In this document: piece after piece, positions 5,556 through 58,738 of the stretch
Numbering within the stretch: the first letter of the stretch is position 1
Layout of the letters: every line of letters starts with the position of its first letter
Origin: Patescibacteria group bacterium UBA5738
GTDB lineage: Bacteria; Patescibacteriota; Minisyncoccia; Minisyncoccales; UBA5738
DNA: 64,000 nucleotides
NCBI GenBank assembly: GCA_002419295.1
Contig: DIFW01000017.1
Location: 57,099 to 121,098, forward strand
Direction: 5' to 3'
The notes under the pieces: model-generated
The model's database searches: none
What the model was told of the DNA's origin: nothing
What the model saw: the letters and a program-made list of their open reading frames with translations, nothing else
Position numbers and translations under genes: made by a program

Positions 5556-5566
5556 ATTTTTGAAAA

Positions 5567-7563: not shown

Positions 7564-7592
7564 ATTTCAAATGAAAAATTTAAATAGATTTT

Positions 7593-43001: not shown

Positions 43002-44990
43002 CTATGCGGCGGCGGTTTTCCCAACATTGATTCCGGAATCGGTTTTGAGGGGTTCGTTCGCCGCCGGAGTTTCTTTTAAAGCGTTTATCGACGCTCCGCC
43101 GCCATTATTTTTCGGCGCCGCCATCGCGCCGGATTCCGAATCGGGCTTGCGGTTGATGATCTCGGGCGGCGGCCCCGGTTTTTGCGCGACCGCGGCTTTT
43201 TTGATTTCCGCTTTTGCTTTTTTGATTTTTTCCAACTCTTCGGGATTGGTGGTGATAATTTGATCTTCAATATATGAAGCCACCACTTTCATTGCCACAT
43301 GCTTTTGCCCGGCAAAAAACAACCCTTCTCCGATTTCGGCTTCCAAAAGCAACCCCTTTTCCCTTTCGGTGAGATTAAATGTTTTTTGGACCACATCAAT
43401 GGTCGCCGGCGATTGTTTCAGCAGGATTTGTATTGAAGAGTTGGTGATGATCGGCGGTCCGTAGTTGGAACGCATAAAATCAGCCACATCTTGGGTGATG
43501 GTGGAAACTCCCAGCCAGTATTTGCGGGCCCGCTTGCACAATCCGTATAAAAACGAGGCGCCATCGTCGTTTTGCATCAATACCCACGCCTCGTCAACCA
43601 CCAAAATCCGTTTGCGCAATTTGGCGCGGACCTTGTTCCAAATATAATGCATAATGATATACATCGCCGCCGTTCGGAACTCGTTTTCCATATCGCGGAT
43701 GCCAAAAACCACCAGCGGCTTGTCCGTGGAAATGTTGGTGGGTTGGTTGAAAAATTCCGCGTATGTTCCCTGCGTAAATTTGCGAACGCGGCGCACCAAA
43801 GAGTCGGCGCCTTCCATTCCTTCCAGCACCGCTTCCAAATCCTGCATCAGCGGCACTCTCTCCGCCCACAGCCGGGGATCGGTTTCCGGGGTGATGTCTT
43901 TGGCGGCATAAACTTCGGTAAGCGCTTGATCGATGATAGCGTCTTCTTCGGAGGTTAATCCTCCCAAAAGGATTCTTACCAATCCCACGACATTAATAAT
44001 GTTGGAGCGGATTACATCGGCCGGGTTTTCGTCTTCTCTCGGCTCGGGCAAATCAAAAGCATTGATATGGTAGGGTGACGACAGCGAAACATTCAAAAAC
44101 GATCCGCCAGTCGCCTCGGCCAAAGTTTTAAATTCGTTTTCCGGGTCCACGACAATGGCATCCACCCCCATCATCATTGAGCGCAAGATTTCCAATTTGA
44201 CGGTGTAGCTTTTTCCCGATCCTGATTTCGCGAAAATGACGCTATTGGCGTTTTCCATTGAAAAGCGATCAAAAAGTATCAAGGAATTATTATGGAGATT
44301 GGTGCCATAAAGAATCCCTTCATTGGCGGAGAGATCAAACGAGACAAACGGAAAAGTGGACGACAGCGGGCTGGTATTCATCGGCGTCCATGTTTGTATT
44401 TGGTCCATGCCGTAGGGACAGGTGGAAACAAAGCCTTCTTTTTGCTGATAGAGCGACGGCTTGATGTAAATCAGTTTGGATTCAAGGATTGAGCGCAAGG
44501 TGGTTTCAATATCGCGCAATTTTTCAAAATCGTTTTCATATGCCGTCAAATAAATTCCCAGACGAAACATTCTTTCGGTGGAAGTTTGCAATTTGTCGCG
44601 CAAATCTTCCAAATCTTGATGGGCGATTTCCAGCGCTGGATCGCGCACCAGTCCTTTTTCCTGGCGATCCATGATTTCGGCTTGAACTTCGGTGAGTTTT
44701 TTGCGCAATTGTTTTAGCGTGGTGCCGGTATCAATGGGATGGATATGGAAACTTACATCCATGGGAGTGTCCAGATTGATTACCGGAGTGAACCAGCCGG
44801 AATTCAAATAGCGCGGATAGGAAAAAATAAAAAACGATTTACCGCACCGCTCCCCGATCTTGAAATGATCCGACGCCAAAACAATTGACGCCGGCGCGAC
44901 AATATCTTTGATGTTGATCGTTTTCATTTGCAATTCTTGGCCAGGCAACGCGATTTTTTTCGCTTTTTTGGGGGGAGAAAATAACGACAT
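43002..44990 (-). CDS. VirB4/TraC-family type IV secretion ATPase (body)
   Basis: 662 aa. Walker A AKSGSGKSYT, VVDPENEF...INAFDL, Walker B LVVDEAWVLM, and a TraC-like N-domain (YPRYLNSGWFTPVINL). Low-complexity K/A/P-rich tail. Confidence 0.7.
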   Translation of the reverse strand: MSLFSPPKKAKKIALPGQELQMKTINIKDIVAPASIVLASDHFKIGERCGKSFFIFSYPRYLNSGWFTPVINLDTPMDVSFHIHPIDTGTTLKQLRKKLTEVQAEIMDRQEKGLVRDPALEIAHQDLEDLRDKLQTSTERMFRLGIYLTAYENDFEKLRDIETTLRSILESKLIYIKPSLYQQKEGFVSTCPYGMDQIQTWTPMNTSPLSSTFPFVSFDLSANEGILYGTNLHNNSLILFDRFSMENANSVIFAKSGSGKSYTVKLEILRSMMMGVDAIVVDPENEFKTLAEATGGSFLNVSLSSPYHINAFDLPEPREDENPADVIRSNIINVVGLVRILLGGLTSEEDAIIDQALTEVYAAKDITPETDPRLWAERVPLMQDLEAVLEGMEGADSLVRRVRKFTQGTYAEFFNQPTNISTDKPLVVFGIRDMENEFRTAAMYIIMHYIWNKVRAKLRKRILVVDEAWVLMQNDDGASFLYGLCKRARKYWLGVSTITQDVADFMRSNYGPPIITNSSIQILLKQSPATIDVVQKTFNLTEREKGLLLEAEIGEGLFFAGQKHVAMKVVASYIEDQIITTNPEELEKIKKAKAEIKKAAVAQKPGPPPEIINRKPDSESGAMAAPKNNGGGASINALKETPAANEPLKTDSGINVGKTAAA

Positions 44991-45008
44991 GTTCCAATTT
45001 TTGGTTTT

Positions 45009-45656
45009 TTATTGAATTAATTCGGGCGGGATCTCCGGATAATAACCGCGTTCAGAGTCTTCAAGATGGTGCGAGCTCCATAAAAACTCGGCGATTTCAA
45101 GGCTGTTGAGCGGCACGCATTGCAAGCCGCAACGGCGCAATCCCAATGCCACGAACTCCATTCTTTGCGCCAGCTGGGTCTTGCTTTGGTCAAATTGTTC
45201 CTGTGCCGCTTCCGCGATTTTTTCGCGATTGACATTTTTTTCCCGTTTCGCCGCCGCCAAGCTGGGAAGCGCGATCGGCTGGAACGGCACAATCACATAA
45301 AAAGATTTGTTCATAATGGTGCCTCCCGAAACGATTTCATTAATAAAGTTGCGATATTCAACAATCTGCGTGCGCAGAAGATCGTTGCTTTGCTTGGTTT
45401 CCAAATCGCGCAACTTGTCCAAATAGCTGGTGATATTCAACTTGCGGCTTTGCACCAGAATCTGCAGGGAAAAATCAAGAGAATTCAAAAAATTTTGATA
45501 TTGGCCGATGACGGCGTTTTGTTCTTCTTCGGCCATCAGGGCGAAATTGATGGAATTAACCATAATAATCCCCCGCAACCCCTTGTTTTTCAGAACCAGG
45601 ATGCCGTCTTTGATTTGATCAATTTCCAAAAATTGTTGAGTGGATAGAATCGCCAT
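45009..45656 (-). CDS. VirB4 N-terminal domain fragment, separated from the ATPase body by one in-frame TAA
   Basis: 215 aa. IDQIKDGILVLKNKGLRGIIMVNSINFALMAEEEQ resembles Gram-positive-type VirB4 N-termini. The downstream ATG (44990) is 21 nt from the stop, in the same frame. Confidence 0.45.
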   Translation of the reverse strand: MAILSTQQFLEIDQIKDGILVLKNKGLRGIIMVNSINFALMAEEEQNAVIGQYQNFLNSLDFSLQILVQSRKLNITSYLDKLRDLETKQSNDLLRTQIVEYRNFINEIVSGGTIMNKSFYVIVPFQPIALPSLAAAKREKNVNREKIAEAAQEQFDQSKTQLAQRMEFVALGLRRCGLQCVPLNSLEIAEFLWSSHHLEDSERGYYPEIPPELIQ

Positions 45657-45668
45657 ATTTTAAATTTT

Positions 45669-46109
45669 TTACGCGGTTTCTATATAATCGCGGATGAGCC
45701 GCCAGTTGTTTTTTTTGGAAGACGCGGTAATTTTAATCATTGTCGGCGCTTTTTGGAGGGTGATTGTGCCTCGGTCAACGGCCTGCTGGTTGGGCAGAGA
45801 AAATCCTTGCCATAAAAACATTCTTGGCGATCTGGCAAAAGCGATATAGTGCTCAATCACCTTGATGATGTCGATGCCGTCAATTTTCACGAACGCCAGC
45901 GCGCCGGAGCATCCTCCAACGATGGCGATCATCGCCAGCGCCAGCGGCATGCTGGCCTTGCCGACCACAAAATAAATCACAAACGATATGGTGGTGCCGA
46001 TGCCGACAAAAATAAACTGCTTGAATGTGAGCGGCCCCACAATCTTGGACTCCATTTCAATAAATTGCGGAATGGTGAAATTCATGTTGGAATCATAATT
46101 CGCTTTCAT
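45669..46109 (-). CDS. Small two-TM membrane protein, VirB3-like (PrgI/TcpE-type) by position and topology
   Basis: Start trimmed to MKANYDSNMNFTIPQFIEME. Two adjacent hydrophobic helices. Lies directly upstream of the VirB4 genes. Confidence 0.35.
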   Translation of the reverse strand: MKANYDSNMNFTIPQFIEMESKIVGPLTFKQFIFVGIGTTISFVIYFVVGKASMPLALAMIAIVGGCSGALAFVKIDGIDIIKVIEHYIAFARSPRMFLWQGFSLPNQQAVDRGTITLQKAPTMIKITASSKKNNWRLIRDYIETA

Positions 46110-46291
46110 TATATCATCCTTCCATTTTCCCCGCAAAATTTCGCGCGTTAAAAACCGCCGCGTTTTGGCCCGAATATGGTTTTGTGAAAGCCATTTCGCG
46201 AGTGAAATATATTTGATTTCTTTTGCAATCCCCAACGAGGGGTTACGCTGTAATTTCTTGACAGATAGATTGGGTTTGATAATGTGAAAAT

Positions 46292-46633
46292 ATGAAAAGC
46301 AAAAACACATTGGAGAATGGATCGGTGCGGCATATAATTTTTAAACAGGACGGCGTTTGGTACGGCGTGGCTTTGGAATTTAATATCGTGGAAGAAGGCG
46401 ATAATCCGGTGGAAGTGATGGTGTCTTTATTTGAGGCGATACAGGGTTATGTTCAAACCGCGCAAAAATGCAAAATGAGCGCGGCGCCGTTAAACCAAAC
46501 CCCTGATAAAGAATATCAAAAACTTTGGGAGAAACTGTCCAAATCCCAAGTTGCGGGGAATAAAAACGAAAAATCATTACAGGTCTATAATTTCGGCTAT
46601 ACGCCCTTCGCTTCCTATGCCTTGTGCCATTAG
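46292..46633 (+). CDS. HicB-like (UPF0150) antitoxin-family protein
   Basis: DGVWYGVALEFNIVEEGDNPVEVMVSLFEAIQGY resembles the HicB N-domain. A TTGACA-17-TAATGT promoter lies directly upstream at 46257. Confidence 0.4.
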   Translation: MKSKNTLENGSVRHIIFKQDGVWYGVALEFNIVEEGDNPVEVMVSLFEAIQGYVQTAQKCKMSAAPLNQTPDKEYQKLWEKLSKSQVAGNKNEKSLQVYNFGYTPFASYALCH

Positions 46634-46636
46634 TTT

Positions 46637-46741
46637 ATGGCTAAAAATATTTTCAATTGGACTTTTTCGGATATAGTTGGTTTTTTGCGGGATCGCGGTT
46701 TTATTTATTCCCACGCCAGAGGCAGTCATCAGATTGGCTGA
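46637..46741 (+). pseudogene. Truncated hicA-like toxin remnant (34 codons)
   Basis: MAKNIFNWTFSDIVGFLRDRGFIYSHARGSHQIG then stop. It matches the HicA/YcfA N-terminal half through the GSH motif. No continuation in any frame. A terminator hairpin follows at 46768..46800. Confidence 0.4.
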
Positions 46742-46949
46742 AATATTAAGCCGCTTCTATTTCCAAACAAAAACCGCCGCGATTTTTGCGGCGGTATTGT
46801 TTTGGTAACCATAAATACCTCGGTCTTGGATTGATAATTGTCCGCGCATAGTTTTGATGGTTGTCAATCTTTGCAAATTGATTTTACCATTTTGTAATAT
46901 GCGGGCAATAGCTTGGGTTAAACCGGTATTCAAATTTGTGAGCAGTTAA

Positions 46950-47135
46950 AAAAGTAACCCCTCACTGGGGCTACTGCATTTTGCATTTATTCCTCCTTTG
47001 GAAAAGGAGGTGGCCCCGCTACGGCGGGGCCGGAGGATTTCTTAATTCGAATTTCAAATCCCTCCTTTTCGCTTCGCTCAAAGTGCTCCCTTTTCCAAAG
47101 GGAGAATAATACTCAGTGAGGGGTTACTTAAAAAA
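46950..47135. mobile_element. MITE-like element, 170 bp, with 14-bp perfect terminal inverted repeats and an 8-bp target-site duplication
   Basis: TIRs gtaacccctcactg (46958..46971) and cagtgaggggttac (47114..47127). Direct repeat ttaaaaaa on both flanks. Four internal 8-bp hairpins. Confidence 0.65.
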
Positions 47136-47249
47136 TCCTTGACAAATTAGCAAAAATATGATATGGGATAACCAGCTCCGCCGGGCTTCCGGCGCCTAAA
47201 ATTATTAATATGGATGCTGAAAAATAGATAGAAAAAGGAGGTTGTAAGC

Positions 47250-47621
47250 TTGGGAAGTGTTAGGCTTGGATTGTTAACGGATATTATTTTCATATCTTCT
47301 TTTCTTCCATTTGTTGTGGCATATTATCTTTCCGCAACATATCTATGGCCGATCATGGACGACCCTGTGATCAATATGGTAGAATTTTACATGGTTTGGG
47401 CGGTTGCCTTTGCTGTGTTTTGGACCATCATCAGGGTTTGGAGAAGGAAGAGGGTGGAATTAAGTGCGGTGCAAGCCGCGGAAAATAGGAAGTGGGGTGT
47501 TCCCGAGAAAGAAAAACCCAAAAAGAAGGAAAAAACCAGCACAGATTTGCTGGCAGAAGAGGTACTTAAGAAAGTTGAGGAGAGCATGGATGAAAAAGGA
47601 GAAAAAGGAGGTGAAAAATAA
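47250..47621 (+). CDS. Small two-TM membrane protein with Lys/Glu-rich tail, hypothetical (TTG start)
   Basis: Strong SD AAAGGAGG 8 nt before the TTG start. Two hydrophobic helices, then a KEKPKKKEK tail. Confidence 0.4.
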   Translation: MGSVRLGLLTDIIFISSFLPFVVAYYLSATYLWPIMDDPVINMVEFYMVWAVAFAVFWTIIRVWRRKRVELSAVQAAENRKWGVPEKEKPKKKEKTSTDLLAEEVLKKVEESMDEKGEKGGEK

Positions 47622-48895
47622 TGGCAATACCGTTGCCTGACATCCCGGGGGATATTATTTATTTGTTTTTGGGGCTTTTGGGTGTTTGTATTTTGTGTTT
47701 TTTGGTTTGGTTGGTTTGGTTCCGTATTCCAAACGATCTCCAAGGGCGGTGGTTGATCCGAATTAGCGAGGGTCAAGGTGGATGGCTACACCAAGGAGAT
47801 AACAAAATTGACCCAAAAAGAAATGATCAGGGAAATGCCGCAGGGGTAGTAACGAATGGTCCTGCGATTAAGCCAATCATTTGTTTCAAGGGGTACCATT
47901 GCGAAAAAAATGATGCTGGAGAATATATAGTTGTTCCAGATGTGGATAAAAAACAAGACAAGAAGGATTCTCCCGCGGGTTATGCACTGTTGTGGCCTAT
48001 TCTCTTTGTTTGGCACTATCTTTCTGCTTTAACAAAAAAGCTTTTCTACGGCATTTTTTGGCTTGGCCCTCTTTATGTGTATGGGGCGGGAACCAATAAA
48101 TGGGAAGAATGGGTAGAAGAGCGTGGCAAAAAGGTGCTACGGACATTTGATCGTCGTGAGTTCGGTTTTAGGCTCAAAGTTACGAACTTTGGGTTTGAGA
48201 CAGAGGCCGCTGAAGCAAAAAACAAAGTTCCTTATAAGATTAAGGGAGAAGCTTTCTGGCGTATTGAGAATATAGACAGAGCAACCAGAATGATAGATGA
48301 CAGCAACTATAAGGCGGCAGCGTTGCTGACAGGAGAAATAGTAGCATGGGTTAGCAAGGAACCAATCTATCATATTGAAAGAGATAGAAAAGGAAAGATT
48401 GTCGCCGTTGGAGCTGAGCCGTCGGAGACTTTGAAGGAGAAGCTAGTGGTGCATTTATCAAGAGAAGGAGGTGCTGTTGAAAGGATCCGAAAAGAATATG
48501 GATTCTTAATTAGCGAAATTGTTATTTTGGATATTGAGCCCATGGGTGAGTTTTCCGAGCTTTTAGCCGCTGAAGCAAAGGCTGAGCTCAAGGGGCAAGC
48601 CGATGTTAGAGCGGAAGAGTTTGAAATGGCAGTCCAAAATATTAGGAGAGAATATACTGAAGCATGGTCAGATCTTTATAGAAGAAAACCAGAAACATTT
48701 GTCCAGTTTGCGGCCAGAGGTATTGAAAAACACGGCCCTCCGAGCATTTTTGGAATTGAGGGAATGGTGAGAGGTTCGACTGCGGATGGAGACATAGGAA
48801 GGCTTTTACAACTGATTGCTCCCAAACTGTCTGCGGAAGAAATAGATAAAGTAATTCCACAAATAATGGAATTGCTCAAAAAGAAATCGAAATAA
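47621..48895 (+). CDS. Membrane-anchored protein, possibly SPFH/band-7-like
   Basis: 424 aa. N-terminal TM helix. ILDIEPMGEFSELLAAEAKAELKGQADVRAEEFE resembles the SPFH C-terminal coiled region. A/T-rich codon usage. Confidence 0.35.
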   Translation: MAIPLPDIPGDIIYLFLGLLGVCILCFLVWLVWFRIPNDLQGRWLIRISEGQGGWLHQGDNKIDPKRNDQGNAAGVVTNGPAIKPIICFKGYHCEKNDAGEYIVVPDVDKKQDKKDSPAGYALLWPILFVWHYLSALTKKLFYGIFWLGPLYVYGAGTNKWEEWVEERGKKVLRTFDRREFGFRLKVTNFGFETEAAEAKNKVPYKIKGEAFWRIENIDRATRMIDDSNYKAAALLTGEIVAWVSKEPIYHIERDRKGKIVAVGAEPSETLKEKLVVHLSREGGAVERIRKEYGFLISEIVILDIEPMGEFSELLAAEAKAELKGQADVRAEEFEMAVQNIRREYTEAWSDLYRRKPETFVQFAARGIEKHGPPSIFGIEGMVRGSTADGDIGRLLQLIAPKLSAEEIDKVIPQIMELLKKKSK

Positions 48896-48896
48896 G

Positions 48897-48938
48897 GCTA
48901 TCTGTACCAATCAGACAGCCTCTTTTTATTTACCCATT
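48897..48938 (+). terminator. Rho-independent terminator
   Basis: GGCTATCTG-taccaat-CAGACAGCC hairpin (one mismatch) followed by TCTTTTTATTT. Confidence 0.6.
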
Positions 48939-49065
48939 AAAATATTGCAACGAATCTGCCCTAAATATACTTGGTGAGCAATTAAACTTTTCTTAACGCG
49001 TAGTATTGACAAGGAGGGAAAGCCGCGACAATTTGGTTACGCAACAGCTTATTCGAATATTGGCT

Positions 49066-50352
49066 TTATGCTCTCATATCTTTTATTGGGATTTTGCTTT
49101 CTTGATGTTTTTGATATTCTTCGCTTTGTCCGTATTTGGTATCCATTGATGCTCGCGTATCTTTGATGCCACCCTGTATCTTTCCTTCCATTCCGGATTG
49201 GAAACTTTTTCTTCCTCCGGAGGAAATTCCCTTGCCTATTCCTCCCGCCATTCCCTGCATGCCCTTGGTGATACCGCTACTGATTTCTCCGCTAAGCTTG
49301 GGAATCATTGCGGCGCAAAGCATTTGCACCGTCATCATATATATTGCCAGCGCGATCCAGTAGATTATTCCCGAAGTGATAAAAGAAATCGTATAGGTGC
49401 CAAACGAAAAAATTGGGGGTTCGTATTGCATTTCTTGCGGCATAATCATATAGGACGCGCTTAATCCGAGCGTAAGCAAAAACAACATCAATACTCCTCC
49501 CAATGTCCAGCTAGTAAGCCAATCAACCCATGTTTTGAAGTGATGTTGCGTTTGCGGCAAGACGCCGGCCAATATTGCCAGCGGTGCGAGAATTGCCAAA
49601 ATTTGGATAACAAAAACACGCGTTAAAAAAAACATTGCAAAAGAAAACAACAATCCGGTCAATGTGTTCATTACCATTATTTTAACGATCAAGGTTGGCA
49701 CAGTGTATATCATTAGCAAGAGTGTTCCCATTACCAATCCCAACCCGGCTAAAATATTCCATCCCAATACAACCGAAGCTACTGCGCCGCCGCTATAAAG
49801 CGCGAATAGAGACAGAGCATTTATAAAAATATCTTTGAAAAATATATCAAATACCGCGGAAAAGATGTCTCCCCCGCCGATGATAATGCTTCCCATTATT
49901 ATATTGCTTATATCAAGCAACATTCCCACAAACAACGGCGCGAAATGGATTAACAATGCGGCAACAAAAAATTTAATAAAATGTTTTTTTGCATTAATTG
50001 ACTCAACATTAAAAATCGTCCCTAGGGCAATGGTGATAAATACAACAATTAGCAAGATATCGGCTATTGTTGTGGTTATGCTTATGCCTGTTTGGACGAA
50101 TGCGCTGTCTTTGAGATTAAGCATTTCCGGGCTTTTGCTGATGGAAAAATTGAATAAAGCGCTGGCGGTTAAAAGATAGATCAATCCACTGGCAATTTGT
50201 TTAAACAAATCAAATATGTATTGTGTTACCGGCTTAACGAAATTCGAAAGCATTACCTCCATGCTTGCCGATTGGGCTACTGCCTGATCAGGGAAGTATG
50301 TTAATCCGACTATCAATAATATTACCAACAAAAATGAGAATTTTGCTTTCAT
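49066..50352 (-). CDS. Polytopic membrane protein with signal peptide and Gly-rich C-terminal tail, VirB6/TrbL-like by architecture
   Basis: 428 aa. N-terminal signal peptide (...DQAVAQSAS), about 8 TM helices, hydrophilic GxxG-rich C-terminus. Sits in the T4SS-like operon. Confidence 0.35.
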   Translation of the reverse strand: MKAKFSFLLVILLIVGLTYFPDQAVAQSASMEVMLSNFVKPVTQYIFDLFKQIASGLIYLLTASALFNFSISKSPEMLNLKDSAFVQTGISITTTIADILLIVVFITIALGTIFNVESINAKKHFIKFFVAALLIHFAPLFVGMLLDISNIIMGSIIIGGGDIFSAVFDIFFKDIFINALSLFALYSGGAVASVVLGWNILAGLGLVMGTLLLMIYTVPTLIVKIMVMNTLTGLLFSFAMFFLTRVFVIQILAILAPLAILAGVLPQTQHHFKTWVDWLTSWTLGGVLMLFLLTLGLSASYMIMPQEMQYEPPIFSFGTYTISFITSGIIYWIALAIYMMTVQMLCAAMIPKLSGEISSGITKGMQGMAGGIGKGISSGGRKSFQSGMEGKIQGGIKDTRASMDTKYGQSEEYQKHQESKIPIKDMRA

Positions 50353-50379
50353 AATTTTATCATTGTAAAAACTTGGCGA

Positions 50380-51630
50380 TTAACGGAACATTCCGCCTAT
50401 AATTCCGATGAAAGTACCGATAACATTTTGAGTTTGATTGGCGATATTTACCAAAGTGCCTTGCTTCGTTTTGTCTTTAATTCTAACTGCGGTGATATTT
50501 TCAAAATTCGTTGCGCTATAGGCATATTCTTTAAACTCTCCAGTGTTCTCGTCGGCGGTTTCTTTGATGCATTTGCCTGAATCTCTGTTTAGACAGCGGT
50601 TTATTAAGCAACCGCAAGCAAGGAAGCCGCAAGGCTCCAGTTTAGCGGTGTCAACTGTGCCGTCGGCATTTTTTTTGTAGGAAAATGCTTGGTATGATTT
50701 TGGTTGGCTCACCGGGCCTTGGGGGAAATTGATCCATCCGCCGTTGATTGCATTGTTCCCTGCCCCCTCCACTTTGTATTCATTGCCGGCAAAATTAACT
50801 TCATCATAGAAGATCACGACATCACATCCCGTTTCAGGAGCATTATAGGTGGCAATGCAGGTATAGGGATTTGGCAGGCATATTTTTTGCCAATCAGTTT
50901 TGCTGCCGTTTTCATCAAAGCCATAATTGCAACCGCAATATAAGCTTTGGCAATCGGCATTTTTACTGCAAAACTGGTAATTATCACTGGCGCCTGGTGT
51001 TATTTTGGCTTCATTCCCCGTTTCGGCGCATACGCTATCGTTGCCGCGGCAACAGCGCCAATTTTTTGGCACGCATTGTTGGTCAAAAGTACCATCGGAA
51101 TCTTTACAGCAATTTATATTATCGTTTGGCCCGGAACAACTTCGGTTGTTAATCGGGAAATTTCCCGCAAGATTTGCCGGGATTGTCGGCAAAGCGACTG
51201 CCATTTCGGTGAGATTGGGATTGATCAAGCTAAAGATTGCCCAACTGGATAATAATAATGCCAGTCCGATCGCCGCGGATTGTATTCTTTTCCTTGCTTC
51301 AGATAATTTATTTGGATCGGCAACGGAAGTGATATATTGTATGCCGGCGATAATCAGCGCGATGAATACCGCCAATCCCCCCAACCCCACTCCCCAGCCG
51401 AAAAAGTAGCCGACAAGATCCGCCAGCGCTGAATCTTCACTCAATGTATATCCTCCCAGTGGAGATGCCGGCCAATCGGTTTGCAAGGTAAAGCCAAAAT
51501 CCGGCGCTTCACATTTCGTTTCAGCTAATTCGCTGGAAAAAATTATTGTCGCGGGGAACGACAAGAGGCAAGCGATTGCAAATAGTAAAAATGCGCGTAA
51601 AATATTTTTTTTAAAAAATTTGGAATGCAT
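50380..51630 (-). CDS. VirB2/TrbC pilin-like hairpin fused to a C-terminal Cys-rich extracellular domain
   Basis: Signal peptide, LADLVGYFFGWGVGLGGLAVFIALIIAGIQYITSVADPNKLSEARKRIQSAAIGLALLLSSWAIF (pilin-like two-helix hairpin), then about 280 aa with about 22 Cys. Confidence 0.45.
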   Translation of the reverse strand: MHSKFFKKNILRAFLLFAIACLLSFPATIIFSSELAETKCEAPDFGFTLQTDWPASPLGGYTLSEDSALADLVGYFFGWGVGLGGLAVFIALIIAGIQYITSVADPNKLSEARKRIQSAAIGLALLLSSWAIFSLINPNLTEMAVALPTIPANLAGNFPINNRSCSGPNDNINCCKDSDGTFDQQCVPKNWRCCRGNDSVCAETGNEAKITPGASDNYQFCSKNADCQSLYCGCNYGFDENGSKTDWQKICLPNPYTCIATYNAPETGCDVVIFYDEVNFAGNEYKVEGAGNNAINGGWINFPQGPVSQPKSYQAFSYKKNADGTVDTAKLEPCGFLACGCLINRCLNRDSGKCIKETADENTGEFKEYAYSATNFENITAVRIKDKTKQGTLVNIANQTQNVIGTFIGIIGGMFR

Positions 51631-51631
51631 T

Positions 51632-52366
51632 TTATTTTTTGGGAAGGATTGATACTGATTCTATCATTTCGTTGATTTCTTGCACAATTGTTGCGGTGGA
51701 GCTTTGCGAGGTTATCGATATGGTGTAAATTTTGCCGGAGGGGGTGTCGAAAATGGCGTTGACTATTTTTAAATTTATCGTAATTTTTGAAGTTGGCTCA
51801 ACGATGGATTGTTCCGTTTCCACCACGGAAACGGTTTGGTCCCCTTTGACGATTTCGGAGCGGGCGATTTTGGCGGCGATATTTTTGGCGCGCAAATCGG
51901 TTTCAATTTTTTCCATCAGTTCTTCAGCGGTTTGCGCGCTTGATTCTTCCACGGTGAGGGAGTTGATCGACGGCATTATCGATTGGCTGGCGGTTTTATA
52001 GGCGGCGAATAATATCTTGCCGCCGGCGCTTTCCGCGGCTTGTTCGCCGAGATTCATCGGTATCCAATCAATCGGGTACTCAAAGGAGAAGGACTCGTCC
52101 GGGGCGGTCCATATTTTTGTTTCAACGGTCGTGGTGGCGCTGTCCGCCGGACTTTGCGCCGGATTTTGCAATTGGCCTTGTATCTGGCTCATAATGCCGT
52201 CAAGCTGTTGGCCGGCGTCGGGCACTCCTTGCATCAATTCTTGCGGCAAATTAAGTTGCAGATTTTTGATATTGCCCTGAAATTGGTTGAACTGCCACAT
52301 CGTGGAGCCGGCCAGAAACGCAATCATTACAAACACGCCGATTAAATATAGATTCACCAATTTCAT
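51632..52366 (-). CDS. N-terminally anchored hypothetical protein (possible VirB8-like periplasmic component)
   Basis: 244 aa. One N-terminal TM helix, a Q-rich linker and a soluble domain. No diagnostic motif. The VirB8 assignment is only positional. Confidence 0.3.
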   Translation of the reverse strand: MKLVNLYLIGVFVMIAFLAGSTMWQFNQFQGNIKNLQLNLPQELMQGVPDAGQQLDGIMSQIQGQLQNPAQSPADSATTTVETKIWTAPDESFSFEYPIDWIPMNLGEQAAESAGGKILFAAYKTASQSIMPSINSLTVEESSAQTAEELMEKIETDLRAKNIAAKIARSEIVKGDQTVSVVETEQSIVEPTSKITINLKIVNAIFDTPSGKIYTISITSQSSTATIVQEINEMIESVSILPKK

Positions 52367-52375
52367 AATATCGAA

Positions 52376-54955
52376 TTATATGTTCCACCACACTCCCGCG
52401 TATCCGAACAATGAGGTGAATATTCCCACGATTGTCCAGGCGAAAAACAATATGAAATAGCCGATGCCGATCAGTTTCCACCATGAAATGACTTTTTGCT
52501 TGATTTCGGGAGTGCCAAAGCTGGTATAGAACAAGCCGCCGGTGGCCAGCCCCAGCAAAGGCAGAAGAATAAACGCCGCGCGGAACAGAATCATATTCAA
52601 AATTTGCATTATTACCAGCAGAAAATGCTTGGCGCCGCAAGCTTCGCGGTCGTCCCATTCGGTGTTGGGATTGTCATTGGTGAGGCCGCAGACCGCCAAA
52701 ACCATTTGCCCTTTTTCTATTTCTTTGCCGCCGGCGGCAAAATCAAACGACCATGTTGCCGGCGCCGCGCCCGTATCCGTGCATTTTTCGTCCAGACAAG
52801 CTAAAACCGACCACTCATATTTTCCCAGACAATAGAGCTGGCGGATGTCCTTGTTGATCGTCGTTGAGTTTTCGTTGACGATTTTTTCCACTTTTTGTCC
52901 GGGAGCGCAATCTTTGTTGGTTTCTTTGTCGGATTTTTCGGCATAATTCAGATTTAGTTTGTAATAATGCGCGCCGGCGACCGGTTCCCATGAAAAGCTG
53001 TAGATCAGCTGGCTGTTATTGATTGTTTCTTGCGGGTTAATCGGTCCTTCTGACGCGCCCAAGGCCGCGGTGGAAAAAGTGAATTTGGGCGAAGGCGCGC
53101 CACAAAGCTGGCCGTTTTCGTCGGCGCAAGTTTGCACGCTCCATTCATAAGATTGGCTTTGGTTGACGGCTGGATAGTCCGCGGCGTAATTATTGTTTTG
53201 CGAGACAATTTTCTGGCCGTTGAAATCCAAAACATAAGATTTGGCGCCGGCAACCGCTTCCCAATGCAAATCAACCGGCATTGCCAAATCGGAAGTGTTG
53301 TCCGCGGGGGATAAAGTTTCGGTTTTCGGCGCGCGGCCGGTGGTGCGGAAATACCACCATTGAGACCACGGCTCGTCGCACACATTGCCCACCGGAATCG
53401 ACGGCCAGCAAGATTTCACGCGCCATTTGTAGGCAGTGTCCAATTCCAGTTCAATCCCCTGCGCGTCGCTGTTGTTGTCGGCGGCGTTTGCTTTGGAAAA
53501 AATAATTTGTGATTTTGTGGTGCGCCGCTCTCCGTCTACCAATGATTGGCCGGTGTCGCCGGAAATTTTTTGAATATCATAAGCAAAAGAATTGGCGCCG
53601 TTGGGAGCTTGCCATAAAAGCTTTCCCGGCAGTTCGGCGAGTTTGGCGGTTTGCGCATTGGCATAATCGCCGTCATTGGCGGGCGAAAGCGCCTTCGGTG
53701 CTTCAACAATTTCATTTTTTGCGGTAAATTTCCAAAGCTGGCCCCAATATTTGTCTGATGATGAGCCGCAATATTCATCGCCGGCATTGGTGTTGTTGAA
53801 ACACCGCCGCAACTGCCAATAGTAGGTAATGTTTTTGGTGAACAGCGCCCGATCTTGACTGGACATTTCTTTATGCGACCACCAATTGCGCCCGACTGTC
53901 TCTTGCGCCGGGTTAATGACATCGGGCTTGCAGGTGTTATCGGTTTGCTTTTGAAGATAATGGCAAGCCATGGGATTTTGCAATGCCGGCACATCTTTTT
54001 TTAACCATGCGGCCAATTGAGAAAATCCTTGCGGGATTTGCGCGCCGGTCAATACCAGATGATTTTCGTTGGTATAAACACGCAACTGGTATGATAGCGC
54101 CGCGATCATATTATTGTTGTAGGCCATTTTTTCCGATGAAACTTTGGCCGAACACCAATCAAGCTTCAACCCATCATAGGAGATGCCGGTTTTTCCGTCC
54201 GGACCGTTCCAATCCGGGTCGCCGATGTTGATGGGTTCGGGAGCCGGGCTGGTTTTAAATGTCCACCATGGCGCTTTGTCTTCGGGCAGGCAATTGGAAC
54301 CGTCTTCGTTGCAACAAGGGCGTATGCGCCACTTGATTACCGTGTCGGAGTTATAGAAACAGGGGTAAAATTTTTCCGTCGCGTTAAATTCGTTGGTAGT
54401 CAAAATCTGGCGGAAAATACCGCCGGCGCTTTGAGAGTCGTTTAATTCCAAATTCTTGTTTTCTATTTCTAAAATATACGAATGGGCGCCGAATAATTTG
54501 GAAGTCGTCGCTTTTTTATTTCCCAATTTTTCTTGAAAATTCCAAATATATTCTCCGTCTTCGTTTTGCCACCCGTCGATATTGTCCCATGCCAAAACCA
54601 CGGGCAAGGTGATTTCATTTTCGTTGGTTTGCCTGGTTTTATTCACCGGATCGTTATAATAGTAATGGTTTTTGGGCATGGTCAAGCATTCGTTGACGCA
54701 AGCGCAAGCGCCCATATCAATATTGTCGTTAATTTTCAGTTGCCCTCCCTTTTGCCACGATTTGCAAACGGTTTCGCCGGATTTCGTGCCGCTAAAAGAC
54801 GCGCCGCATTCTTCCGGGATGTCAAAATAATCGGTTTCACCGATATCGGTTGCGGAACACAATAACGGCGCGATTGTTGCGGCCAAAAAAAATAAAATAT
54901 GCGGGAAAAATGATTTTAAAATTTTAGAAATCATGCCGATTTTTTGATTTATCAT
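52376..54955 (-). CDS. Giant secreted Cys/Trp-rich repeat protein with C-terminal VirB2-pilin-like membrane hairpin (paralog A)
   Basis: 859 aa. Signal peptide. Repeated modules (YKWRVKSCWPSIPVGNVCDEPWSQWWYFRTTGRAPK, YEWSVQTCADENGQLCG, WTFKTSPAPEP). C-terminus FRAAFILLPLLGLATGG...IGIGYFILFFAWTIVGIF. Confidence 0.5.
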   Translation of the reverse strand: MINQKIGMISKILKSFFPHILFFLAATIAPLLCSATDIGETDYFDIPEECGASFSGTKSGETVCKSWQKGGQLKINDNIDMGACACVNECLTMPKNHYYYNDPVNKTRQTNENEITLPVVLAWDNIDGWQNEDGEYIWNFQEKLGNKKATTSKLFGAHSYILEIENKNLELNDSQSAGGIFRQILTTNEFNATEKFYPCFYNSDTVIKWRIRPCCNEDGSNCLPEDKAPWWTFKTSPAPEPINIGDPDWNGPDGKTGISYDGLKLDWCSAKVSSEKMAYNNNMIAALSYQLRVYTNENHLVLTGAQIPQGFSQLAAWLKKDVPALQNPMACHYLQKQTDNTCKPDVINPAQETVGRNWWSHKEMSSQDRALFTKNITYYWQLRRCFNNTNAGDEYCGSSSDKYWGQLWKFTAKNEIVEAPKALSPANDGDYANAQTAKLAELPGKLLWQAPNGANSFAYDIQKISGDTGQSLVDGERRTTKSQIIFSKANAADNNSDAQGIELELDTAYKWRVKSCWPSIPVGNVCDEPWSQWWYFRTTGRAPKTETLSPADNTSDLAMPVDLHWEAVAGAKSYVLDFNGQKIVSQNNNYAADYPAVNQSQSYEWSVQTCADENGQLCGAPSPKFTFSTAALGASEGPINPQETINNSQLIYSFSWEPVAGAHYYKLNLNYAEKSDKETNKDCAPGQKVEKIVNENSTTINKDIRQLYCLGKYEWSVLACLDEKCTDTGAAPATWSFDFAAGGKEIEKGQMVLAVCGLTNDNPNTEWDDREACGAKHFLLVIMQILNMILFRAAFILLPLLGLATGGLFYTSFGTPEIKQKVISWWKLIGIGYFILFFAWTIVGIFTSLFGYAGVWWNI

Positions 54956-54978
54956 TTATCATTTATCATTATACACCT

Positions 54979-57930
54979 TCAAAGGATTTGGTTCCATAAT
55001 TCTTTATAGCCGACCAAATTCATCAAAACGGAAACAATGATCCACGCGAAAAACAAAATGCCATAGCCGATGCCGATTTTTTTCCAGCCGTCTTTTATTG
55101 TCGGAATAAGATTGGCCTTATCATGCGACAAATAGAACATTCCGCCGGTGATCATCGCCATTACCGGTAAAAGTATGAATGCCAGCTTGAACACCACAAA
55201 GTCAATGATTACTTTGGTTCCCAGAACCAGATGTTTGATTTCGCAAGGTTCTTTCTCGTTGTATTGGGTGTTTGGATCGTCCGCTGCCAATCCGCAGACC
55301 ATCAGTCCGGAACTCTGCCCTTTGTTGGCGATGGAAAAAAATTGTTCGGCGTAAACATATCCTTTTGAGGCGCATTTATCATCAAAGCACGGTTGCACCA
55401 CAAACGAATAATTACCGGCGCAGTATGGCGATCCGTTTTTATCCGCCGTTCTGATTGCCATACTGGTCGCGGAAACTATTTTTTCTTTGTATTCGTTGTT
55501 AAACCAATCCGGATCGCAGCTGGTGCTCTTCTCTCCGCTTTCAACTTTCGCGGTTACCAGAAAATATTTGGCGTTACTGCTCCATGTCAAACCGGAAGGT
55601 ATCCGCGAGATGTCTCCCGAAGGAGACAAGTTGGTTGGCTTAGTAAAATCTTTTGTGAGATATGTTCCAAAATTGCTCCACGGACCGCAAACGGTTCCGT
55701 TCTTGTCGGCACAAGTCTGCACCTGCCAGCGATAAGTTTCTTTTGCTACTTTATAATTGAAGGTATAGGAATTGGTTGGTTGAGGATTCGGATTTTCGAT
55801 GCCGACTTCTTTTCCGGCCGCGTTGAAAATCCTGACATTAAAAGATCCGTTCGCCGGCACGCTTTCCCATATGAAGGTCGCACTGGGCGCGTCGTCATTG
55901 GCGATTTGCAGAGAATCGTTTTTTGGCGGCCGTCCGGTAGTGATAAAATTTTGCCACTCCGACCATTTGCCGCCGCAAATTTCGTTGATATTGCCCACCG
56001 GGATTGACGGCCAGCAGGATTTCACGCGCCATTTGTATTTGGTGTTGATCTTTAATTCCACGGATTCGGGATTTTTCCCCTGCGTTGGGGCCTTGTCGGT
56101 GATGGCGATTGTAATTTGAGCTTTATTAAACCTTCGCCCTGCGTCATTTTTGTAGCTTTCTTGGCAATCCCCCGTTCTAAAAATACTTTCTCCGTTTTCG
56201 TCTTGAATGTCGTATAAAAAAGAGTTTGCGCCGCAGGGAGCGGTCCAGTTGAAAGTATTGTTCAATCCGATCAGATTGTTGTCATCGCCCCAGTTTTCAT
56301 TTTTCGCCGGGCTGATCGGCGCCGGCGGTTTCAATGTGCTCGAATCCATTGCTTTGCCGATTAATTGCCATTTTTGCCCGAAGTCTTCGTCAATGTTGCT
56401 GTCGCAGTGAGGGAAGCTGCTGTCTTCGGCGCCGCCGCTAACATTGAAACAGGGTTTGATTTGCCAGGAATACTTCAAATCGGCGCCTTTACTGCCGGTA
56501 AAAAGATTGCGATCTTGGCTGGTATTTTCCGCCGCGGAAAAAAAAGGCTTGAAAGTCGCGTCACTTATCAATTGATCCGTATAGGGGGAAAAAGAAAGAG
56601 ACTCCGGTTTCGCGCAACTTCCGTCGCTGTTTCTTTGCAAGTAATGGCAAGCTTCGGATTCGTGCTCCCCGACGGCCACTTCGCTTTTCGCGGCCTTTTC
56701 TATGCCGGATTCCATCCATTTATCGCATTCGCTGGCGCCGCCGCTCCACGCGTTTTTCCAGCCATCCCAGCGGGATTTAATGCCGCTGACAACGCCGCTG
56801 TTTTTTATCCATCCGAGAATGCCGCCTAAAACGGGGATATTCTCAATTTTTTCGATCAGTGCTCCCAGAGAAGTGTTTTCGCTGGACATTACGCGCATTT
56901 GGTAATTGGCCGCGTAGTCAATCTGGCTGTCGTTATAGACTTTATCAAAACGATTGTAGGTGTTCGGAACGGATTTTACGAGTTTGGCTTTGCACCAATA
57001 TAGCTTGGCACTGCAAAAATCCACGCCTTCAAGGGCGCCCGGTCCGTTCCAATCCGGGTCTTGGGCGATTTTATTGTTGCCGGCATATGCCTCTGAATCG
57101 TTGACACCTAAGAGTTCGGGGGCCGGAGAAGTGGAAAATTCCCACCAACCCTCGTTATCGCCGTATGTTTTACATTGCAATCCGGACCTGTCGCAACAAG
57201 GCAAAACTCGCCAGCGGTACTTTGAGTTGGTTTGAAAAAAACACGCTCCGCCGTCATCGCGCGAATTGAAGCCGTTTTTTTGCAGAACCTTGGCATAGGC
57301 TTCTTTTCCGCCGATATTTTCAATCGCGTATCCTCCGGCTTCGGCGAGATTTAAACCTTTTATTCCGTCCGGGGCGCCGGCATCATCCATGCTCTGGATT
57401 TGGACGCGGTAGCTCCGCGCGCCGTAATCAACGGTTGGCGCTCCCGTACCGATCACGAATTTCCCCTCGTTTTGCCATTCCGGGATATTATCCCATGCCA
57501 AGATGATGGGCAAGCTGATGACATCGGGCGTGTTTTGGTAAAGCTTGCCGCCTTCAATTTTTTTTGTCTCTTCGTCGTATTGCGCGTTATTATCGTAATA
57601 TTGCGGATTTTTTGGCGATTCAAGGCATTCTTTTTCACATTTGCAGAGTCCGTAATCGTTGCGCCCGGCTTGCGCGATTTGCCAGCTTGAGCATTTTCTT
57701 GTGCGCCTATCGTTGTCGCAACATGAAGGATTTCCATCTTTCTCGCAGGGAGAAGTGTAATGTTCCCATACTTCTCCGCTTCCGACATCAAAACCGTTGC
57801 ATGTTTTGGGAATATCTTCGTAATAATATTTATGGCCGCAGGCATTCGCTTCAAGCGGAGCCGAAAAGCAAAACAACACTGTTGCCGTTGTGGCGAAAAA
57901 AGAAAAGATTTTAAAATAATTTTCTGCCAT
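54979..57930 (-). CDS. Giant secreted Cys/Trp-rich repeat protein with C-terminal VirB2-pilin-like membrane hairpin (paralog B)
   Basis: About 983 aa from MAENYF. The same repeat family (YKWRVKSCWPSIPVGNINEICGGKWSEWQNFITTGRPPK, YRWQVQTCADKNGTVCG, WEFSTSPAPE). C-terminus KLAFILLPVMAMITGG...IGIGYGILFFAWIIVSV. Confidence 0.5.
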   Translation of the reverse strand: MAENYFKIFSFFATTATVLFCFSAPLEANACGHKYYYEDIPKTCNGFDVGSGEVWEHYTSPCEKDGNPSCCDNDRRTRKCSSWQIAQAGRNDYGLCKCEKECLESPKNPQYYDNNAQYDEETKKIEGGKLYQNTPDVISLPIILAWDNIPEWQNEGKFVIGTGAPTVDYGARSYRVQIQSMDDAGAPDGIKGLNLAEAGGYAIENIGGKEAYAKVLQKNGFNSRDDGGACFFQTNSKYRWRVLPCCDRSGLQCKTYGDNEGWWEFSTSPAPELLGVNDSEAYAGNNKIAQDPDWNGPGALEGVDFCSAKLYWCKAKLVKSVPNTYNRFDKVYNDSQIDYAANYQMRVMSSENTSLGALIEKIENIPVLGGILGWIKNSGVVSGIKSRWDGWKNAWSGGASECDKWMESGIEKAAKSEVAVGEHESEACHYLQRNSDGSCAKPESLSFSPYTDQLISDATFKPFFSAAENTSQDRNLFTGSKGADLKYSWQIKPCFNVSGGAEDSSFPHCDSNIDEDFGQKWQLIGKAMDSSTLKPPAPISPAKNENWGDDNNLIGLNNTFNWTAPCGANSFLYDIQDENGESIFRTGDCQESYKNDAGRRFNKAQITIAITDKAPTQGKNPESVELKINTKYKWRVKSCWPSIPVGNINEICGGKWSEWQNFITTGRPPKNDSLQIANDDAPSATFIWESVPANGSFNVRIFNAAGKEVGIENPNPQPTNSYTFNYKVAKETYRWQVQTCADKNGTVCGPWSNFGTYLTKDFTKPTNLSPSGDISRIPSGLTWSSNAKYFLVTAKVESGEKSTSCDPDWFNNEYKEKIVSATSMAIRTADKNGSPYCAGNYSFVVQPCFDDKCASKGYVYAEQFFSIANKGQSSGLMVCGLAADDPNTQYNEKEPCEIKHLVLGTKVIIDFVVFKLAFILLPVMAMITGGMFYLSHDKANLIPTIKDGWKKIGIGYGILFFAWIIVSVLMNLVGYKELWNQIL

Positions 57931-57937
57931 TAGACCA

Positions 57938-58738
57938 TTATAATTCAAAAACGCGGGCAAGGGCAATCCAGTCCTGCGGCGATAAATTTTCCGGCCGGCA
58001 ATTTTGGGGGATGCCGGAGTTCGCCATTGCCGCCTTTATTTTTTCGCGGGGCAGATTCGCGATTTGGACGAGATTGCTTGCCAAAAGTTTTCGCGGATGC
58101 GAAAATCCGGCTTTTAAAATTCTAAAAAATTTTTCCGAGAATTTTTTATCGGCGCGCTCCCCTTCTTTTGCGCGGGGAACAAGAAGCAAGATCGCGGCAT
58201 CAACTTTCGGCACGGGCCAAAAAGATCCCTTGGAAACATAGCTGATAATTTTGGGAATGGCGTAAAATTGCACGGCGGTTGCCAAAATGTTCGCTTTTGG
58301 CGCTTGCGCGCAAATTCTTTGCGCCACTTCTTTTTGGATGATCAAAGACATTAACGCCGGCGGATTTCGGCTTTCCAAGAATTTGCGGATGATCGGCGCG
58401 GCGGCATAGAACGGCAGGTTGGCGACGATCTTGTAGGGCGCGGCGATTTTTAATTCGTCGAATTTGAGCGCGTCGGCGAGAAACAATGTGAAATTGTCCG
58501 CTTTGTTGAATTTTTCGCGCAAAACATCCGCCATTCGGCGGTCTTTTTCCGCGGCGATCACGGGACGGCCGGTTTTTATCAATTCCGCGGTGAGATTGCC
58601 GGTGCCCGGTCCGATTTCCAAAACAGTTTCGCCCGATTTAATTTCCGCCGCGCCGATTAATTTTTTTATGATTCCCGTTTCGGACAAAAAATTCTGCCCC
58701 AGCCGTTTTTCCGGCCTGATTTTCAATTTATCGTTCAT
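57938..58738 (-). CDS. rsmA: 16S rRNA (adenine1518/1519-N6)-dimethyltransferase
   Basis: RLGQNFLSETGIIKKLI...VLEIGPGTGNLTAEL is the canonical KsgA SAM-binding region. Confidence 0.85.
   Translation of the reverse strand: MNDKLKIRPEKRLGQNFLSETGIIKKLIGAAEIKSGETVLEIGPGTGNLTAELIKTGRPVIAAEKDRRMADVLREKFNKADNFTLFLADALKFDELKIAAPYKIVANLPFYAAAPIIRKFLESRNPPALMSLIIQKEVAQRICAQAPKANILATAVQFYAIPKIISYVSKGSFWPVPKVDAAILLLVPRAKEGERADKKFSEKFFRILKAGFSHPRKLLASNLVQIANLPREKIKAAMANSGIPQNCRPENLSPQDWIALARVFEL

Follow-up and report, generated by a model that had tools for sequence, protein, structure and literature searches.

A Patescibacteria-type type IV secretion locus with modular pilin-like proteins beside the replication origin

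Motor and membrane proteins of the locus

We analysed a stretch of 64,000 nucleotides from the Patescibacteria group bacterium UBA5738 (contig DIFW01000017.1; the whole stretch is called the window below), in which genes resembling those of a type IV secretion system (T4SS) lie beside the replication origin, the dnaA-proximal ones at a distance of about 2 kb from dnaA and the DnaA boxes. Every gene named in an initial annotation of this DNA was recovered in its place by the listing of open reading frames (ORFs) and by family searches; the annotated set of VirB2, VirB3, VirB4 and VirB6 is borne out by family matches, remote ones in the case of VirB6, and the position next to the origin was confirmed. 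The T4SS genes form two blocks on the minus strand (Table 1). The motor block consists of a VirB4 ATPase gene, a separate TrsD-like gene and a PrgI/VirB3-like gene. Three plus-strand genes separate it from a surface operon (57966-49066), which encodes proteins of 995 (probably 983), 859, 244, 416 and 428 aa in that order, with intergenic gaps of 23, 9, 1 and 27 nt as judged from the ORF coordinates. All ORFs of the locus are intact.

Table 1. Features of the T4SS locus and its neighbourhood (positions within the window)
Feature	Position	Strand	Remarks
Replication-origin region	39323-41352		DnaA boxes at 39323-39489 and 41067-41096; GC-skew minimum
dnaA	39501-40859	-	
rpmH	41218-41352	+	followed by rnpA, yidC, jag and virB4
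VirB4-family T4SS ATPase, 662 aa	43002-44990	-	without the canonical N-terminal domain
TrsD-like protein, 215 aa	45009-45656	-	VirB4 N-terminal domain as a separate protein
PrgI/VirB3-like small membrane protein	45669-46235	-	Pfam PrgI 2.1e-11; ORF extends to 46310
113-aa protein	46292-46633	+	in the variable stretch that separates the two T4SS blocks
Small membrane protein	47250-47621	+	88-123 aa depending on the start; one hydrophobic segment
424-aa protein	47621-48895	+	membrane-anchored, distantly SPFH/stomatin-like
VirB6-like polytopic membrane protein, 428 aa	49066-50352	-	ends the surface operon
Modular VirB2-like pilin, 416 aa	50380-51630	-	signal peptide, pilin hairpin ~72-138, Cys-rich ectodomain of ~280 aa
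Bitopic 244-aa protein	51632-52366	-	N-terminal transmembrane helix, Gln-rich low-confidence linker, extracytoplasmic PsbP/Mog1-fold domain ~80-244
Giant modular pilin, 859 aa	52376-54955	-	signal peptide, disulfide-rich rod of Fn3/Ig-like beta-sandwiches ~40-740, C-terminal VirB2-like hairpin 775-849
Second giant modular pilin, 995-aa ORF	54979-57966	-	probably 983 aa from 57930, as called in a public contig
ksgA/rsmA rRNA dimethyltransferase	57938-58738	-	Pfam RrnaAD 7e-47; directly upstream of the giants; housekeeping neighbour
LysM + Peptidase_M23 cell-wall hydrolase	58821-59876	+	Pfam Peptidase_M23 1.3e-23, LysM 2.9e-18

The ATPase scored 360.6 bits against the NCBIfam model conju_CD1110 (NF045971), above the curated cut-off of 325, and covers positions 172-733 of the 752 in that profile; Pfam P-loop_TraG was matched as well (7.8e-24, 84.5 bits versus a cut-off of 25.8), as were AAA_10 and DUF87. 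Both nucleotide-binding motifs are intact (Walker A, AKSGSGKS, residues 254-261; Walker B, ILVVDE, residues 462-467), and the protein belongs to the VirB4/TraC family, as had been proposed, and not to the HerA/FtsK-type ATPases. The N-terminal and ATPase domains do not reside in one polypeptide: VirB4 is split across the 662-aa protein and the 215-aa protein encoded next to it. The latter had been annotated as a VirB4 N-fragment, and it indeed matches only positions 2-123 of conju_CD1110, together with TrsD (NF041427) and the TraC-like Pfam family PF26593. A split VirB4/TrsD arrangement is typical of Patescibacteria and of the pGO1 type (PMC12102498). A VirB4 sequence identical to that of the window recurs in metagenome contigs of ENA and JGI. 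In the related locus L018 (Ca. Nealsonbacteria, CP179887.1; 7235-11011, plus strand) VirB4 is 1258 aa long and contains an intein ahead of the P-loop domain, made up of Intein_splicing and a LAGLIDADG_3 homing endonuclease.

The start of the PrgI/VirB3-like protein is ambiguous. Public contigs call it at 46235 (188 aa), and the start at 46109 chosen in the initial annotation is equally plausible; relatives align only from about residue 46 on, and a hydrophobic segment spans residues 73-121. The 428-aa protein has several (about six or more) hydrophobic segments, is encoded among T4SS genes and is syntenic in relatives. A profile built from 20 of its homologues had a single match among the 177,635 PDB sequences, namely TrwI, the VirB6 protein of R388 (E 0.58), and the matching region spans the motif LAPL...T...F..W. 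One homologue (P0061) reached Pfam TrbL with 1.1e-4 and 22.5 bits, under the cut-off of 25.9; the window protein itself had no Pfam match, and tblastn found no match to it among plasmids. The 428-aa protein is likely, if formally below threshold, to be VirB6-like. More distant relatives encode an 'extended VirB6' of 746-918 aa at this place (L007, 3114-5354; L008, 3367-5634; L009, 2506-4863; L016, 4376-7132; L020, 4043-6691); the extensions of L007, L009, L016 and L020 showed no significant Pfam family.

Pilin modules on large surface proteins

The pilins of this locus exceed the small format of signal peptide plus hairpin, having 416, 859 and 995 aa and large ectodomains. The assignment is most direct for the 416-aa protein, which matches Pfam T4SS_pilin (PF18895) at residues 76-136 with 31.2 bits (cut-off 26.6) and the NCBIfam Mbov_0395 pilin-like family with 7e-9; the whole protein contains 21 Cys residues. 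The two giants are full-length paralogues of each other (31% identity, E 9e-129). Both had been described as giant surface proteins, and both are present, with two amendments: the 995-aa ORF probably starts at 57930, and the giants themselves carry pilin modules. Their last 105 residues comprise a conserved Cys-containing motif and a two-helix hairpin, and in this C-terminal module 12 of 13 family members have a T4SS_pilin match (best 3.2e-6) and one a TrbC/VirB2 match. A hidden Markov model (HMM) of the module recognised the 995-aa giant at E 2e-47 and, beyond the giants, only the 416-aa pilin (E 1.7e-4) among the 883 six-frame ORF fragments of the window; by this search the 64-kb window holds no small stand-alone pilin. 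Two homologues of the giants are annotated by NCBI as 'pilin'.

Searched against 1.84 billion proteins, the module profile retrieved 2,470 cluster representatives (414 at E <=1e-10). The median length of the best 147 new module-bearing representatives is 793 aa, and with few exceptions the matches listed place the module no more than a few residues from the C-terminus; giant modular VirB2-like pilins thus appear to constitute a sizeable family. Two loci of more distant relatives, L012 (13483-18350) and L015 (7037-11474), contain three consecutive large pilin-domain proteins each (395-783 aa) after virB4 and a gene for a protein of 163-166 aa, so that arrays of oversized pilins seem to be common in this group.

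The AlphaFold model of the 859-aa giant, based on 41 aligned sequences (mean predicted local distance difference test score 86.8), consists of a signal helix, an all-beta ectodomain (residues ~40-740) and a terminal hairpin (775-810 and 816-849). In Foldseek the predicted ectodomain resembles chains of several fibronectin type III (Fn3) or immunoglobulin-like (Ig) domains, i.e. gp130, contactins and, on the bacterial side, the neck of the grappling-hook protein GhpA (E ~1e-13). The positions of Cys and Trp in the ectodomain are invariant across the giant family. A hypervariable tip, which we considered, was not seen: along the giants, conservation is highest in residues 81-240 and in the pilin module.

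The 244-aa protein, encoded between the giants and the 416-aa pilin, is membrane-anchored as annotated. We considered it as a VirB8 candidate and rejected this, its predicted extracytoplasmic domain having a PsbP/Mog1 fold and not an NTF2-like one. A homologue with 61% identity is found in Ca. Yanofskyibacterium parasiticum, which parasitises Methanothrix (PMC10936435).

Conservation, missing components and neighbouring genes

Among contigs representing one genome per species, all 20 related loci belong to metagenome-assembled genomes of Patescibacteria, with VirB4 47-93% identical; they carry the labels Paceibacteria, Nealsonbacteria, Yanofskybacteria, Minisyncoccales and in some cases Saccharibacteria. 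This agrees with the earlier impression of an organism like those of the candidate phyla radiation, and the host genome is one of the class Paceibacteria, related to Ca. Yanofskyibacterium and Nealsonbacteria. The full order of giant, 244-aa gene, pilin, VirB6-like gene, spacer, PrgI, TrsD, VirB4, jag, yidC, rnpA and dnaA is found in L005, L006 and L009, and also in L007 and L008 with the exception of the 244-aa gene, of which no homologue was detected there. L020, a complete Nealsonbacteria genome, keeps the motor block and its housekeeping neighbours as well as the M23 peptidase, ksgA before one giant and a VirB6-like gene; we detected no 244-aa gene and no pilin fusion in it. PrgI and TrsD are in place in all relatives whose contig reaches upstream of virB4 (11/11).

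The degree of conservation differs strongly between the two blocks. In close relatives VirB4 is 83-93% and the TrsD-like protein 77-93% identical, while the pilin fusion, the 244-aa protein, the giants and the VirB6-like protein, syntenic as the last is, fall to 22-58% (one giant reaches 79% in the closest locus). This argues for an essential cytoplasmic motor combined with fast-evolving exposed parts. Indeed, VirB4 identity exceeds DnaA identity in every locus with both genes (e.g. 89/75, 86/74 in L007, 87/72 and 69/55%).

These data also bear on a decayed or cryptic integrative and conjugative element (ICE) whose DNA-processing genes are gone. The nearest curated families of VirB4, TrsD, PrgI and the pilin are those of conjugative elements in Bacillota and Mycoplasma, and VirB4 has matches on 3,123 plasmids, 2,126 of them conjugative. 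The best of these 3,123 matches is about 34% identical, as against 47-93% for the Patescibacteria proteins, and the best plasmid relatives belong to Bacillota and Actinomycetota. Against such an element, jag, yidC, rnpA, rpmH and dnaA on one side and ksgA on the other keep the same order across genomes whose DnaA proteins are 49-82% identical, the housekeeping synteny being preserved in all 15 relatives that hold both virB4 and dnaA. VirB4, as said, is the more strongly conserved protein of the two, and its neighbours in the locus have remained intact. Neither an integrase nor a relaxase nor a flanking tRNA was found in the window and its right flank, and we saw no flanking direct repeats with an integrase in relatives and no patchy presence among close relatives.

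As to missing components, Pfam and NCBIfam searches covering the window and 7 kb past its right end detected no type IV coupling protein (T4CP; VirD4/TcpA), relaxase, VirB11 or VirB8-10 among the called genes, which extends to the right flank what the initial annotation had reported for T4CP, relaxase, VirB11 and VirB9/10 in the window. The absence of a coupling protein is established for the window and the right flank only. One VirB11 candidate, a T2SSE ATPase (30950-32278) and the only such ATPase in this range, was rejected: it is of the PilB/GspE type (GspE 450 bits versus 48.7 for VirB11) and goes with type IV pilus genes. The latter include a cluster on the minus strand (3361-9272) of four N_methyl (pseudo)pilin genes and a gene for a 559-aa DUF11/CLIPPER surface protein, in addition to the plus-strand ATPase gene; this type IV pilus is a second surface machine, of a kind reported to be essential in Saccharibacteria. 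Outside the T4SS locus the covered region holds housekeeping and type IV pilus genes; no conjugative set appeared in the right flank, in keeping with the earlier view that the locus is not an ICE.

At the origin, dnaN precedes dnaA, and a gap of 358 bp with DnaA boxes lies between dnaA and rpmH. The window has 13 DnaA-box matches, five of which fall in the two intergenic regions flanking dnaA, and cumulative GC skew is lowest at 38-40 kb. At the other end of the locus, 7 nt separate the end of ksgA from the probable start of the first surface-operon gene. The ksgA-giant adjacency recurs in L020, where the LysM-M23 peptidase adjoins ksgA and the giant too. This peptidase probably belongs to the T4SS and is a plausible candidate for a VirB1 analogue.

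The plus-strand genes between the two blocks had been regarded as a short island. Three such genes are present, and a random insertion would explain them only in part. The 113-aa and 88-aa genes vary between relatives: the former has no Pfam or NCBIfam family and one 92% identical copy, in L005 only, and the latter has a homologue in L006 only and no significant family. The third gene, whose start is overlapped by the stop of the second, is conserved in synteny, the 424-aa family having the same position and orientation in L005-L009. A profile of its six syntenic homologues matched six PDB entries, all of them stomatins (PH stomatin, E 1.3e-4; QmcA, 0.012); Pfam Band_7 was reached in only one of the six members, at 0.0096. 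The gene is convergent with the VirB6-like gene, and the facing 3' ends share a hairpin (48894-48922). Between the 113-aa gene and the next lies an ORF-free gap of 617 bp (46634-47250) with three strong hairpins, GC-rich and each trailed by a T run (bidirectional at 46773-46795; the others at 46953-46975 and 47012-47031); the gap is conserved in L005 over about its first 100 nt only. An Rfam scan of the window returned tRNAs only and no match in this gap, and a promoter and terminator scan was uninformative save for the hairpins at 46.7-47.0 kb and 48894-48922. Three related loci contain a gene for a 120-aa '23S rRNA-intervening sequence protein' (PF05635) within the T4SS locus (L005, 1609-1974; L006, 1628-1990; L007, 8768-9139), which is absent from the window.

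Elsewhere in the window, the isoleucyl-tRNA synthetase (IleRS) gene (11015-14506, minus strand; 1163 aa) has a match to the histidine phosphatase family His_Phos_1 (PF00300) between two tRNA-synt_1 stretches, which looks like an inserted domain. A pair of BrnT toxin and CopG-type (BrnA) antitoxin genes lies at ~14685-15276 on the same strand, between the IleRS gene and an S1-domain gene. At the right end, a 1045-aa protein without a Pfam family (62006-64000, minus strand, running on to about 65143 in L026) adjoins a DksA/TraR zinc-finger gene.

Function of the locus and comparison with known systems

Taken together, we regard it as very nearly certain that the locus is a Patescibacteria-type T4SS. 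With a probability of roughly 0.85, it is a vertically inherited chromosomal T4SS of the Patescibacteria clade, derived from the monoderm mating-pair-formation lineage FATA (MPF-FATA), for which a host-contact structure of modular pilins is the best explanation. In T4SSs, VirB4 is the ATPase for pilin dislocation and assembly, and VirB3 and VirB6 provide the membrane platform; in conjugative pili both termini of VirB2 face outward. In the mechanism we propose, Sec and YidC would insert the modular pilins into the membrane, and a hexamer of VirB4/TrsD, docked on VirB3/VirB6, would extract the pilin hairpins from the bilayer. The hairpins may then assemble into a short pilus, a tube or a surface array that would present the Fn3/Ig rods and the Cys-rich domains to the host, in this lineage probably a methanogenic archaeon. 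The M23 peptidase would open the wall for passage, and the PsbP-fold bitopic protein and the stomatin-like protein could serve as lineage-specific envelope scaffolds. That the immediate job of the system is the building of such a host-contact structure has, in our estimate, about an even chance.

Several points weigh against this interpretation. We know of no precedent for the polymerisation of subunits of 400-1000 aa into a VirB2-type helical pilus, and any small major pilin must be encoded elsewhere in the genome. Since the giants' own T4SS_pilin scores lie below the Pfam cut-off (19.4 and 15.1 bits at full length; 23.5 for the isolated C-terminus of the 859-aa protein), calling them pilins depends on family-level evidence, and the VirB6 assignment likewise depends on sub-threshold matches (E 0.58; 22.5 bits versus 25.9). 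The conserved N-terminal domains of the giants (residues 81-240) misfit a simple hypervariable tip for host recognition. A T4CP may be encoded elsewhere and would favour an export role. Finally, the function proposed for the locus is inferred from sequence and a structure model.

Among the alternatives, an uptake conduit is tentative and still the one to be taken most seriously: host nucleic acids or other macromolecules would be imported into a cell unable to make nucleotides, and the pilins would only dock. A functional analogy is possible with ComB of Helicobacter pylori and Ced of Crenarchaeota, T4SS-related DNA-uptake machines that, to our knowledge, lack relaxase and coupling protein; the window, having neither, matches ComB in this respect. 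ComB is a T4SS linked to DNA uptake (PMC11665869), and Ced is a DNA-import system (PMC12102498). The T4SS has been proposed as a route of nucleotide acquisition, competence being dispensable in S. epibionticum (PMC11665869; PMC12857230), and a cultured relative that feeds on host RNA shows tubular structures, possibly T4SS pili, at the parasite-host interface (bioRxiv 10.64898/2026.06.21.733656). PNPase is encoded 5-7 kb beyond the right end of the window. Against import, VirB4 falls far short of the cut-offs for CedB (42.7 bits; cut-off 700) and CedD (22.7 bits; cut-off 600), no ComB7-10 equivalents or VirB7-10 homologues were found in the window and the right flank, and the operon contains no gene for a nuclease or a nucleic-acid-binding protein.

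That the system serves attachment only is doubtful. The initial annotation had seen the apparatus as dedicated to surface display or adhesion, and this is plausible insofar as the giants are modelled as Fn3/Ig rods on pilin anchors, though the structure may also conduct material, be it host nucleic acids or nutrients inward or effectors outward. Improbable, in our view, is an exporter that delivers effector proteins into the host by way of a coupling ATPase encoded elsewhere. Such delivery has been proposed for the Saccharibacteria system (PMC11665869; PMC10633639), and 2,918 Patescibacteria genomes were found to have VirD4-like genes, for the most part at a distance from virB4 (PMC12102498). 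Against it, no T4CP occurs in the 64 kb of the window plus 7 kb, we recognised no candidate effector gene in the locus, and in S. epibionticum the distant t4cp is non-essential whereas the T4SS genes are essential (PMC12102498). The decayed ICE is rejected as highly improbable, on the conserved housekeeping synteny and on the integrase and relaxase missing from the window and its right flank.

A bolder version of the host-contact interpretation, which we put forward as speculation and do not think likely, takes the VirB2 hairpin as a general 'assembly handle' in this lineage of Paceibacteria. All pilin modules of the locus carry a large disulfide-rich ectodomain (Cys-rich or an Fn3/Ig rod), and a filament or array of modular pilins, or one tipped by them, could be a host-specific grappling and contact device, with the PsbP-fold protein in the place of VirB8 and a ring scaffold of the stomatin-like protein. 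Modular type IV pilins of Streptococcus sanguinis (PilB/PilC), in which a polymerisation module is fused to a bulky adhesive domain, are comparable in design; their pilin fold and assembly machine are unrelated to VirB2 and the T4SS. If the assembly-handle idea is true, the proteins described here would be to the T4SS what modular type IV pilins are to type IV pili, with hundreds of such giants in metagenomes.

The system is of a kind already described. Quinonero-Coronel et al. (2025) found VirB4 in 2,417 of 3,035 Patescibacteria genomes, i.e. about 80%, as a monophyletic clade nested in MPF-FATA (PMC12102498). TrsD, PrgI/VirB3, VirB6 and arrays of VirB2-like pilins occur nearby, there are almost no relaxases, a T4CP is rarely adjacent, and in Paceibacteria the virB4 neighbourhood is rich in dnaA, dnaN, rnpA, ksgA and rpmH (PMC12102498). 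Wang et al. (2023) showed that the T4SS cluster of the Saccharibacterium S. epibionticum, the single species examined in this way, pilins included, is essential for epibiotic growth (PMC10633639; PMC12857230), and noted that it is without coupling and relaxase proteins (PMC10633639). In archaea-parasitising Paceibacteria, proteins with a T4SS-pilin domain are among the most highly expressed secreted proteins (Kuroda et al. 2024, PMC10936435). The function of the system is treated as an open problem in a 2025 FEMS review (PMC12857230) and in a 2024 PNAS perspective, which calls the role of the T4SS in Saccharibacteria 'completely unknown' (PMC11665869).

Compared with this clade (PMC12102498; S. 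epibionticum SEML1_0006-0019, PMC10633639), the locus is alike in VirB4 with adjacent TrsD and PrgI/VirB3, in a VirB6-like gene and a VirB2-like pilin array interrupted by a non-pilin gene, in the lack of a relaxase and of an adjacent T4CP, in the neighbours dnaA, dnaN, rnpA, rpmH and ksgA, and in its affinity to MPF-FATA. The initial annotation had overrated its novelty as a poorly characterised system: the same system, with the same missing parts and the same position at the origin, has been published (PMC12102498, PMC10633639, PMC12857230). The locus is a correctly recognised instance of which a few accessory details are new, one more that leaves the general picture unchanged. It differs from the clade as published in that all three pilin modules are fused to large ectodomains, with no small pilin in 64 kb, that a PsbP-fold bitopic protein lies within the pilin array, and that a distant stomatin-like gene is syntenic; these three features may be new, if modestly so. 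The main text of PMC12102498 has no mention of SPFH, stomatin, Band_7, PsbP or flotillin, and the passages cited here none of oversized pilins. For work on archaea-parasitising Paceibacteria, the locus offers some pointers: pilin modules appear to anchor giant rods of Fn3/Ig domains, a PsbP fold is predicted for the protein encoded in the 'VirB8 position', and the locus is accompanied by a stomatin-like gene and an M23 peptidase.

Among conjugative T4SSs, those of MPF-FATA (CTn2/CD1110 of C. difficile, TrsD/TrsE of pGO1, PrgH-PrgL of pCF10, Mbov_0395/0397 of the Mycoplasma ICE) are the closest in kind, with VirB4 above the CD1110 cut-off, matches to TrsD, PrgI and the Mbov_0395-like pilin, and an M23-type wall hydrolase nearby. 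Unlike them, the window has no relaxase, T4CP or VirB8-like (NTF2) protein, the locus is not mobile, and its pilins bear giant ectodomains. The best VirB4 relative in the plasmid database is found in Pontibacillus sp. ALD_SL1, a free-living member of the Bacillota, on a megaplasmid (an 898-kb 'plasmid' record, non-mobilizable; L029, NZ_CP062975.1, 351.8-361.4 kb), where a collinear cluster encodes two pilins, a 779-aa membrane protein, PrgI, TrsD, VirB4 and M23. VirB4 is 34% (1.6e-122) and TrsD 29% (9e-30) identical to the proteins of the window, the M23 peptidase matches at 6e-12 and PrgI at 3e-5, and the pilins match the HMM of the giants' module at E ~4e-6; the match of the 779-aa protein to the 428-aa protein is weak (E 0.013). 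No relaxase or T4CP is annotated within 12 kb of the cluster. It differs in its small pilins (145-151 aa) and in lying beside flagellar genes and not the origin. Because of this collinear cluster and the match to the Mbov_0395 pilin-like family, our sequence comparisons suggest that the pilins were inherited with the MPF-FATA machine of monoderms rather than derived from diderm systems, an origin that PMC12102498 leaves as an option. If the assembly-handle idea holds, a corollary would be that T4SSs of this design, with pilins and without a relaxase, occur in Bacillota too, and the cluster, belonging to a cultivable species, is a possible tractable model.

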